Shown here: in pieces, positions 61,577-61,733 of the stretch
Position numbering within the stretch: the first letter of the stretch is position 1
How the letters are laid out: each line of letters starts with the position of its first letter
DNA from: Chloroflexota bacterium
Lineage (GTDB): Bacteria; Chloroflexota; Dehalococcoidia; Lucifugimonadales; JACPCL1
DNA length: 64,000 nt
Reading direction: 5' to 3'
Assembly: GCA_016179765.1 (NCBI GenBank)
Contig: JACPCL010000037.1
Location: 5,998-69,997, forward strand
Program-made: the position numbers and the translations under genes
The notes under the pieces: generated by a model
The model's input: only the letters and a program-made list of their open reading frames with translations
What the model was told of the DNA's origin: nothing
Databases searched by the model: none

Positions 61577-61615
61577 AATGAGTTTGTTCGTGACGCCGAG
61601 TGCCTAGCAATAGGC

Positions 61616-61649
61616 AAAAACCCTGGGGCAATTTGCCCCAGGGTTTTTC
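61616..61649. terminator. Bidirectional terminator between transposase and tRNA-like gene
   Basis: AAAAA-CCCTGGGGCAA-t-TTGCCCCAGGG-TTTTT. Confidence 0.85.
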
Positions 61650-61658
61650 TTCTGGGCA

Positions 61659-61733
61659 TGGAGCTGAGAGGACTTGAACCCCCGACCTCTCGGTTCGTGA
61701 CGCCGAGTGCTCTCCCAACTGAGCTACAGCCCC
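61659..61733 (-). ncRNA. tRNA-Ala-like RNA with 9-nt anticodon loop
   Basis: GGGGCUG UA GCUC AGUUGGGA GAGC A CUCGG CGUCACGAA CCGAG AGGUC GGGGG UUCAAGU CCUCU CAGCUCC A; G3:U70 and A73; no encoded CCA. Confidence 0.85.

Follow-up and report, generated by a model that had tools for sequence, protein, structure and literature searches.

A putative anti-tRNA small RNA encoded beside an alanine-type tRNA-like gene in an IS1595-family element of a Chloroflexota bacterium

The stretch of DNA analysed here (the window) comprises 64,000 nucleotides from a groundwater bacterium of the Chloroflexota, i.e. C25:5998-69997 of its assembly, and contains an insertion sequence (IS) of the IS1595 family which carries, besides its transposase gene, a tRNA-like gene and, convergent with it, the predicted gene of a small RNA. 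The first 18 nt of this small RNA would be the perfect complement of a segment of the tRNA-like RNA that comprises the end of the D-stem, the 5' strand of the anticodon stem and the anticodon loop. We propose that the element probably bears an anti-tRNA small RNA that restrains a mis-decoding tRNA, and that the two RNAs possibly constitute an RNA-only toxin-antitoxin pair. As judged from sequence alone, the arrangement would be best described as antisense control with a tRNA as the target, and it is found in seven loci, the window included.

The complementarity results from two copies of an 18-mer, at 61586-61603 and 61693-61710, which both read on the + strand and are the only ones in the window; no third site was found there when up to 2 mismatches were allowed, and none of 100 dinucleotide shuffles gave two matches. 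The original prediction, which was made from the window alone, had reported both copies and proposed to look for the 18-mer elsewhere; in the 2,287,207-bp assembly (53 contigs) the 18-mer and all of its sub-words of at least 14 nt are confined to these two places. The identity has sharp borders, the flanking sequences being dissimilar on both sides. Copy 1 has the 3' end of the transposase gene as its upstream neighbour and, as predicted, starts 9 nt past the transposase stop codon (TAA, 61574-61576) within a micro-ORF (ORF, open reading frame; 61578-61607). Copy 2 corresponds to nt 24-41 of the tRNA-like gene, which is encoded on the minus strand, so that all 18 of 18 nt are complementary to the tRNA-like anticodon arm region, in agreement with the prediction. 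The 89 bp that separate the copies contain only a terminator and the 3' half of the tRNA-like gene. The main features of the module are the following.

61551-61579, + strand: promoter-like site of the small RNA, TTGCCG-17-TAAAAT, matching 9 of 12 consensus positions; its -10 box overlaps the transposase stop codon
61586-61603, + strand: 18-mer copy 1, predicted 5' seed of the small RNA, perfect complement of nt 24-41 of the tRNA-like RNA
61586-61652, + strand: predicted anti-tRNA small RNA of about 65 nt, consisting of seed, small hairpin, terminator hairpin and U-run
61616-61648, no strand assigned: bidirectional intrinsic terminator, 16-nt arms 100% complementary and 1 nt apart, with A5/T5 flanks
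61659-61733, - strand: tRNA-like gene with alanine-type body and the 9-nt loop CGUCACGAA; Rfam tRNA, 54 bits
61693-61710, - strand: 18-mer copy 2, covering the end of the D-stem, nt 26 and then the anticodon arm from the 5' strand of its stem through the complete loop to the first nt of the 3' strand
61744-61771, - strand: promoter-like site of the tRNA-like gene, TTGACA-16-TAACAT, matching 10 of 12 consensus positions; it ends 10 nt before the mature 5' end

Logan contigs, assembled from DNA runs of two studies, overlap parts of the stretch with 0 differences. One of them, X4, spans 61285-62850 and thus both copies, again with 0 differences; as X4 was built independently, an artefact of a single assembly is ruled out. 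In reads of 4 DNA runs compared with the stretch, both 18-mers were free of variants and the element was nowhere bridged by a joint, so that these runs revealed neither co-variation within the population nor an empty site. A search of public sequencing runs for the stretch listed no RNA run as containing it.

Since the -10 box of a promoter-like site ends only 6 nt upstream of copy 1, this copy is best read as the 5' end of a separate small RNA of about 65 nt. The terminator at its 3' end is a perfect 16-bp palindrome, which confirms the bidirectional terminator that had been predicted between the copies and which is common to the small RNA (+ strand) and the tRNA-like gene (- strand). RNAfold yields -34.6 kcal/mol for the small RNA, with a terminal 14-bp hairpin that is followed by UUUUU. 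Rfam holds no family for this short RNA or for its counterparts in other loci (see below), and only weak, chance-level matches were obtained at the small RNA of the window. The anatomy supports the further suggestion of the prediction that the transcripts, which would be convergent, are separate molecules able to pair via the enlarged loop.

The tRNA-like gene is called 'Val-CAC' at 61658-61734 by ARAGORN, whereas its body points to alanine. Rfam model RF00005 scores 54 bits at 61659-61733 (gathering score 29); the match covers model positions 1-71 and corresponds to a standard 7/5 cloverleaf over the full length. The acceptor strands GGGGCUG/CAGCUCC form a G3:U70 pair and the discriminator base is A73; G3:U70 together with A73 is the identity set of tRNA-Ala. 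Moreover, the body is 79% identical to tRNA-Ala-UGC of this genome and the four best-scoring reference bodies are all tRNA-Ala. As the body is related to tRNA-Ala and the genome separately encodes a normal tRNA-Val-CAC (contig C22), in addition to two normal tRNA-Ala genes, we rejected the tRNA-Val label. The elbow nucleotides U8, A14, G18G19 and T54-C56 are present and CCA is not encoded. The unusual part is the anticodon loop, which has 9 nt between the stem strands CUCGG/CCGAG, i.e. 8 nt where the Rfam model has 6, instead of the canonical 7 nt; in an alternative fold of the arm a 7-nt loop is closed by a C-A mismatch. It is plausible that the gene gives rise to an expressed tRNA that can be charged by alanyl-tRNA synthetase (AlaRS) and has an abnormal decoding loop. 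The 8/4 or 9/3 arrangement of acceptor and T-stem that marks allo-tRNAs was considered and dismissed on the basis of the full-length alignment to the 7/5 model.

Two further observations concern alanine-type sequences of this kind. A locus from the same order, L014 (G036:C27:18085-21158, 1167-1789), contains four tandem or nearby tRNA-Ala-like genes, namely one normal Ala-GGC and three with 8-nt anticodon loops AUGGGUAU and a four-base GGGU 'anticodon', two of these three being altered at the 3' end, so that the window is not the only place with alanine-type tRNAs that have an enlarged loop. On contig C22, a stretch of 33 nt (about 161451-161483) resembles the beginning of the tRNA-like gene at 91% identity, over the D arm, the 5' strand of the acceptor stem and 6 nt upstream of it. 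The remainder of the tRNA is missing there, and the stretch, which looks like a 5' fragment of a tRNA-Ala, lies about 70 nt before a lipoprotein-like ORF.

The pairing of a tRNA with a complementary segment recurs in related elements. Relatives of the transposase were examined in 171 loci (11 from related genomes, 80 from species genomes and 80 from metagenomes), in which ARAGORN finds 30 tRNAs. For each tRNA we determined the longest exact reverse complement of the anticodon +/- 12 nt within 200 nt downstream (arm test). Matches of 10-20 nt were obtained for 5 of the 30 tRNAs, all on the same strand and starting 40-61 nt after the tRNA; the remaining 25 have arm matches of at most 8 nt. The five loci are listed here.

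L174: arm match of 20 nt
L075: arm match of 14 nt
L139: arm match of 13 nt
L151: arm match of 11 nt
L131: arm match of 10 nt

In L174, L139 and L151 the called promoter-like site ends 3-6 nt before the complementary segment, and a strong hairpin with a U-run follows the segment in the six loci that were folded with RNAfold, the window being one of them. Genome searches at the level of the class (401 genomes; flanks of 1.5 kb, so that more distant modules would be missed) gave one further module, L213, which is the same as L238. Its element is bordered by the duplication CAACTGAC and contains a tRNA with G3:U70, A73 and the anticodon CUA, followed by a bidirectional terminator, which was read by eye and of which the scan tool called the + strand side, and a convergent short RNA gene; 17 nt of the latter are complementary to nt 15-31 of the tRNA and begin 6 nt downstream of a promoter called by the scan tool. 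L213 has the architecture of the window, i.e. convergent genes that share a terminator, with a transposase only 57% identical. In all, a promoter-like site 3-6 nt before the complementary segment is found in 5 of the 7 loci, and in 6 of the 7 the pairing takes in the anticodon together with the 5' strand of its stem. In the window, L174, L131 and L213 the module lies inside borders set by inverted repeats and a target-site duplication. Viral contigs provided 6 loci with 1 tRNA and no complementary segment, and a plasmid collection 8 records, all with at most 44% identity.

Ordinary tRNAs behave differently in the arm test. Among 90 controls (48 from this genome, 21 from tRNA loci of relatives and 21 from six further regions) 88 reach at most 9 nt, the other two being tandem paralogous tRNA genes of L014. 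ARAGORN in a relaxed setting (-ps85) produced 179 extra calls, which are seemingly spurious and serve as a rough background only; 11 of these have matches of at least 10 nt and 2 of at least 13 nt (+/-300 nt, both strands).

The complementarity is, moreover, specific for the cognate partner. In a 6x6 matrix of duplex energies, in which the first 40 nt of each short RNA were combined with each tRNA, every row and every column has its best value at the cognate pair (-29 to -51 vs -13 to -34 kcal/mol), and sizeable cross-reaction is limited to L151/L131, both with the anticodon GCU. The short-RNA backbones of the four low-GC loci are homologous (56-71% identity). L174 and L131 have transposases that are 95% identical and tRNAs that are 54% identical, and each seed fits its own tRNA only. 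As the seeds were out of register in a MAFFT alignment of five tRNA plus small-RNA stretches, exact-match tables and the duplex-energy matrix were used instead. The prediction had asked for a joint change of loop and partner in related elements, and six other IS1595-type loci indeed keep the complementarity while their sequences differ. Such co-variation is what a functional RNA-RNA pair would predict, unlike a one-off duplication. The complementarity to be expected of an RNA antitoxin is also present, with 18/18 nt in the window and 10-20 nt in the six other loci, each time cognate-specific.

These data bear on the possibility that the 18-mer is a scar at the DNA level with no function as RNA, left by a duplication, a gene conversion or a recombination junction when a tRNA cassette was captured. 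The repeat is perfect and sharp-edged, as recent duplications are, and the cassette appears to be acquired, as it is absent from the closest relatives. However, the same tRNA region is duplicated in a comparable position in six other loci, the copy is in antisense orientation to an RNA gene and, in 5 of the 7 loci, stands 3-6 nt behind a -10 box, and the sequences are unrelated between loci, yet always match the local tRNA. The 18-mer is neither the target duplication, which has 8 bp and lies elsewhere, nor an att repeat of an integrase, and we consider a mere scar very unlikely. In the same context, an att duplication was rejected since the 3' half of the tRNA is not repeated (only nt 24-41 are), since nothing but the terminator and that 3' half lies between the copies and since there is no integrase. 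An IS end or a target duplication was likewise discarded as an identity of the 18-mer, the true ends being 60574 and 62748, flanked by an 8-bp duplication.

The borders of the element follow from a comparison with L035, the closest transposase relative in the species genomes (78% amino acid identity), which can be aligned at 60573-61538 and 62368-62750 and not in between. Inverted repeats and a perfect 8-bp direct repeat, TTTCCAAA, fall at the limits of this homology and define an element of 2175 bp (60574-62748), which is single-copy in this genome and encloses both 18-mers. Target-site duplications of the IS1595 family have 8 bp (ISfinder). Together, the transposase domains, the terminal inverted repeats and the 8-bp duplication place the element in this family. 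L174, L131, L115 and L213 have the same type of borders, each with its own 8-mer duplication. The order of the parts is transposase (+), copy 1, terminator, tRNA-like gene (-), 146-aa ORF (+) and p77 (-), and the remaining features are as follows.

60566-60573, no strand assigned: left copy of the target-site duplication TTTCCAAA, the identical 8-mer standing just outside both inverted repeats
60574-60599, + strand: left terminal inverted repeat, 19 of 26 positions matching the reverse complement of 62723-62748; homology to L035 starts at 60573
60586-60614, + strand: promoter-like site of the transposase, TTGACA-17-TAGACT, matching 10 of 12 consensus positions
60638-61576, + strand: IS1595-family transposase, 312 aa, with Zn ribbon and DDE domain
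61799-61827, + strand: promoter-like site of the 146-aa ORF, 10 of 12, back to back with the promoter-like site of the tRNA-like gene
61873-62313, + strand: 146-aa ORF (p146) with coiled-coil-like N-terminal half
62447-62680, - strand: small basic ORF p77, conserved part about 55 aa, from 62614
62723-62748, - strand: right terminal inverted repeat; homology to L035 ends at 62750
62749-62756, no strand assigned: right copy of the target-site duplication TTTCCAAA, matching the left 8-mer

The transposase matches Pfam DDE_Tnp_IS1595 (PF12762) with 150.8 bits, Zn_ribbon_IS1595 (PF12760) with 50.3 bits and NCBIfam NF033547 with 233 bits (cut-off 75), and the -35 box of its promoter-like site is part of the left inverted repeat. 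The scan tool finds 5 promoter-like sites in the element, one before each gene, where 1.1 are expected. The 146-aa ORF has no match in Pfam, NCBIfam, PADLOC or PHROG (a sub-threshold lead to HARE-HTH, 0.88, came from Atlas) and is not similar to the 143-aa ORF that occupies the corresponding position in L213. For p77 no family match was found in Pfam, NCBIfam, PADLOC or PHROGs, Atlas giving sub-threshold leads only. It is very basic with the core RPSY.EG.LR.K.L..KQ.P.FK and marks the right end of one IS1595 subgroup (17 loci and L213): tblastn detects it in 13/91 and 4/80 transposase loci, always downstream and convergent, and the homologue in L213 has an E value of 1e-11. In the left flank of the element, a 64-nt stretch (60493-60555) is 83% identical to contig C20:6465-6528 and may be a piece of some other repeated or mobile gene that was hit by the insertion. 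Genomes of the same genus, at 65-68% identity in coding DNA, were too diverged to yield an empty site.

With copy 1 directly behind the transposase gene, the original prediction had seen in the tRNA-like RNA a regulator or guide, which would pair with the 3' untranslated region (UTR) of the transposase mRNA or address the DNA of the element or its target. We find this unlikely. Copy 1 does stand between the transposase stop codon and the only terminator, so that a full-length transposase mRNA would carry the 18-mer and might be affected by the pairing, and in L213 the complementary segment likewise lies directly after a protein gene, p77. In L174, L139, L151, L131 and L075, however, the segment is downstream of the tRNA and not in a transposase UTR, and L174, L139, L151 and the window have a promoter-like site just before it (6 nt in the window). 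With the segment outside the transposase 3' UTR in these five loci and behind p77 in L213, the transposase mRNA is not supported as the partner. The closest transposase relatives, moreover, do without the tRNA. As for guiding, the words of the 18-mer of at least 14 nt occur nowhere else in the genome and are unrelated to the duplication, the inverted repeats and the flanks, which leaves a guide RNA for the transposase or for element DNA without a matching site. IS1595 enzymes are DDE transposases, for which we know of no RNA guide. RNA-guided transposition of the bridge RNA or omega RNA type was rejected as well, for want of complementarity between guide and DNA. What stands of the original prediction is the functional RNA-RNA pairing within a mobile element, whereas the partner and the role that it had assigned give way in the light of the other loci.

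The complementary RNA might instead be a sensor leader similar to a T-box, which reads the cargo tRNA and switches a terminator for a downstream gene. In two low-GC elements (L174:1422-1727 and L131:2493-2795) the short-RNA terminator is followed by a conserved 100-aa ORF with an N-terminal membrane anchor, which could be a cargo regulated by read-through; the terminator lies directly before the ribosome-binding site, and no promoter is called in between. On the other hand, L213 and the window have a convergent tRNA gene ahead of the short RNA, which leaves no downstream gene to be regulated, and in L139 and L151 a promoter with 12/12 consensus positions comes after the terminator. The pairing comprises 10-20 contiguous nt and includes a stem strand, as opposed to a 3-nt specifier. 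Models of T-box and other riboswitch families did not match, the T-box model remaining without a match at E values up to 1 in 59500-63000. We rejected a T-box identity because of this lack of a model match and the convergent tRNA gene, and a sensor of this kind is in our view highly improbable.

The odd tRNAs of these and related loci are all confirmed by Rfam (49-68 bits) and combine bodies and anticodons in unusual ways, the body assignments other than G3:U70 being rough similarity calls. Bodies with G3:U70/A73 carry the anticodons CAC (window), GUC (L139) and CUA (L213); arginine-like bodies carry GCU (L151, L131, L160) or GAC (L075); and serine- or Sec-like bodies with a long arm carry UAA or UUA (L160, L171 and one beside L146). 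At L146 two odd tRNAs are situated just outside the right inverted repeat. The tRNA-Sec model (gathering score 47) matches the UAA tRNA L171:1214-1300 with 53.4 bits and the UUA tRNA L146:1887-1971 with 47.8 bits, scores as expected for allo-tRNA-like 8/4 or 9/3 structures; the former is downstream of an IS1595-type transposase on a contig that ends there, the latter 30 nt beyond the end of the element. Nonsense-suppressor tRNAs accompany this transposase family in two cases, CUA in L213 and UUA adjoining L146. In several transposase homologues (L003, L005, L237, L242, L248 and L249, among others) the similarity continues past an in-frame TAG near the C-terminus. Additionally, IS1595-type transposase genes are found about 100-1000 bp from ordinary tRNA genes (C31:12798-13634, C45:24125-24949, L048, L051, L053 and L062; the tRNAs are Ser-GGA, Leu-UAA, Leu-CAA, Leu-UAG, Gly-GCC and Glu/Asp), which suggests a preference of IS1595 elements for inserting beside tRNA genes and might be a route by which tRNA cargo is picked up.

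The tRNA could also be useful cargo, e.g. a decoy or replacement against anticodon nucleases, or a suppressor, with a small RNA that merely tunes its dosage. The nonsense suppressors among the cargo tRNAs (L213, CUA; the UUA tRNA beside L146) speak for this, and antisense control suits the tuning of a dosage equally well. Bodies of one identity on foreign anticodons (Ala on Val, Asp or stop triplets), by contrast, look harmful rather than helpful. We regard useful cargo as quite unlikely; it shares the pairing mechanism with the restraint of a harmful tRNA and differs only in purpose, which sequence does not separate.

Starting from what is observed, i.e. the sequence anatomy, the element borders, the recurrence and the cognate specificity with its co-variation, we infer that both RNAs would be transcribed, pair in vivo and inhibit or be toxic in the following way. 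The tRNA-like RNA would be transcribed leftwards and the small RNA of about 65 nt rightwards, from separate promoters. With its free 5' end the small RNA may dock on the enlarged loop and then invade the 5' strand of the anticodon stem, and the resulting 18-bp duplex would lock the tRNA or the nascent pre-tRNA in a state in which it can neither fold nor be used by the ribosome, or would expose it to duplex-specific RNases. The hazard that is restrained would be the insertion of alanine at a non-alanine codon or a disturbance of the reading frame. The shared terminator of the window and of L213 would give the two primary transcripts a further stretch of complementarity, and interference from convergent transcription may come on top. 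The pair may finally serve as an RNA-only toxin-antitoxin or addiction-type module, or as a device for tunable mistranslation, that travels with the element. This purpose is the weakest step of the explanation: a toxin-antitoxin or addiction role is our best guess, and the tuned dosage of a useful suppressor or decoy tRNA would be equally compatible.

Several points weigh against a restrained, mis-decoding tRNA. Decoding by a 9-nt loop and the ensuing toxicity are putative, and the tRNA of the window could be inert. The promoter and terminator calls are consensus matches only. When the whole tRNA is used as the query, 13/90 controls reach at least 10 nt, mostly by similarity of T- or D-arms to neighbouring tRNA genes; the matches in L131 (10 nt) and L151 (11 nt) are short, and because of this higher whole-tRNA background their significance rests on position, geometry and the homologous small-RNA backbone. 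In L131 a TTGACA/TATAAT pair has a 15-nt spacer, which is outside the range of the scan tool, and no promoter was called; none was called by the tool before the complementary segment in L075 either. In L213 the exact match ends short of the anticodon, and the cargo tRNAs of L160 and L171 have no complementary partner. Finally, Rfam finds no tRNA in the elements of the nearest transposase relatives (L035, 78%; L115, 73%; and 18 more), from which it follows that the module is optional cargo and not part of the transposition machinery.

Irregular tRNAs have been described near transposon genes and toxin-antitoxin systems, and two variants were lethal to E. coli, an indirect hint at toxicity (Mukai et al. 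2017, PMC5389517); according to a review, toxin-antitoxin loci and transposon-related ORFs are also the neighbourhood of irregular tRNAs and allo-tRNAs (Krahn et al. 2020, PMC7609411). In these tRNAs, which come from soil and sediment bacteria, body identity and anticodon disagree, as in missense and nonsense suppressors (PMC5389517, PMC7609411). As far as these two articles describe them, irregular tRNAs resemble the tRNA of the window in the mismatch of body and anticodon next to transposon-related ORFs. Two of the tRNAs reported here (L171 and beside L146) match the tRNA-Sec model, as allo-tRNAs do. The tRNA of the window, in contrast, has a normal 7/5 cloverleaf with a 9-nt loop, and a partner small RNA does not figure in what the articles describe: the term 'antisense' is absent from the main texts of PMC5389517 and PMC7609411 and 'complementary' from that of PMC5389517. 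In the main texts of the literature searched we found no tRNA paired with a small RNA directed against its anticodon, in line with the prediction, to which no described equivalent was known.

Other known systems share parts of the design. In IS10 (RNA-OUT/RNA-IN) and in type I pairs such as hok/sok an antisense RNA acts on the mRNA of a transposase or a toxin. The common traits are a small, element-encoded antisense RNA, an exposed end or loop that starts the pairing with a co-encoded RNA, and compact convergent or adjacent genes with their own promoters and a terminator. Here, however, the target would be the D/anticodon-arm region of a tRNA, and the seed is a second, displaced copy rather than a simple overlap in cis. 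Type VIII toxin-antitoxin systems (CreTA, SdsR/RyeA) consist of an RNA toxin and an RNA antitoxin; CreT sequesters a host tRNA, and CreA acts through Cascade and not by direct pairing. The similarity lies in two RNA components, in a harmful one, putatively so in our case, that acts on translation, and in the location at mobile or defence loci. We know of no RNA toxin that is itself a tRNA. T-boxes, too, recognize one tRNA by base pairing with its anticodon, but the module has no stem I platform and no acceptor-end pairing, its contiguous match is 10-20 nt long and no regulated gene is located downstream in the window. The bridge RNA of IS110 and the omega RNA of IS200/IS605 are comparable as structured non-coding RNAs beside a transposase and inside the element. 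They match target or donor DNA, whereas the RNA of the window matches only the gene of its partner RNA, and they belong to other elements than a DDE transposase of the IS1595 type whose closest relatives lack the module.

Antisense RNAs are known to act against mRNAs of mobile elements, and a dedicated anti-tRNA RNA was not found in the literature searched. If the pair works as proposed, tRNA would be a new class of target for bacterial small RNAs, and the module might be a new kind of RNA-only addiction or defence system. It would also offer a testable answer to the question of the purpose and tolerance of irregular tRNAs as raised in the article of Mukai et al. 2017. More tentatively, and as less likely than not, we suggest a class of IS1595-borne RNA-only toxin-antitoxin systems in which a mis-decoding tRNA, e.g. 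one with an enlarged loop or with an alanine-accepting body on a valine, aspartate or stop anticodon, is the toxin and a short-lived small RNA, whose 5' end complements the anticodon arm, the antidote. Translation would then be poisoned by the stable tRNA as soon as the element is lost or its transcription is shut off. If true, such a class would account for the clustering of irregular tRNAs with transposons and toxin-antitoxin loci. On the practical side, a 'tRNA-Val' annotation inside an insertion sequence can conceal an alanine-type tRNA with an abnormal loop, and the natural swap set, in which near-identical transposases come with different tRNAs and each small RNA fits its own tRNA, may supply synthetic biology with orthogonal tRNA/anti-tRNA pairs by which suppression or mistranslation could be switched.

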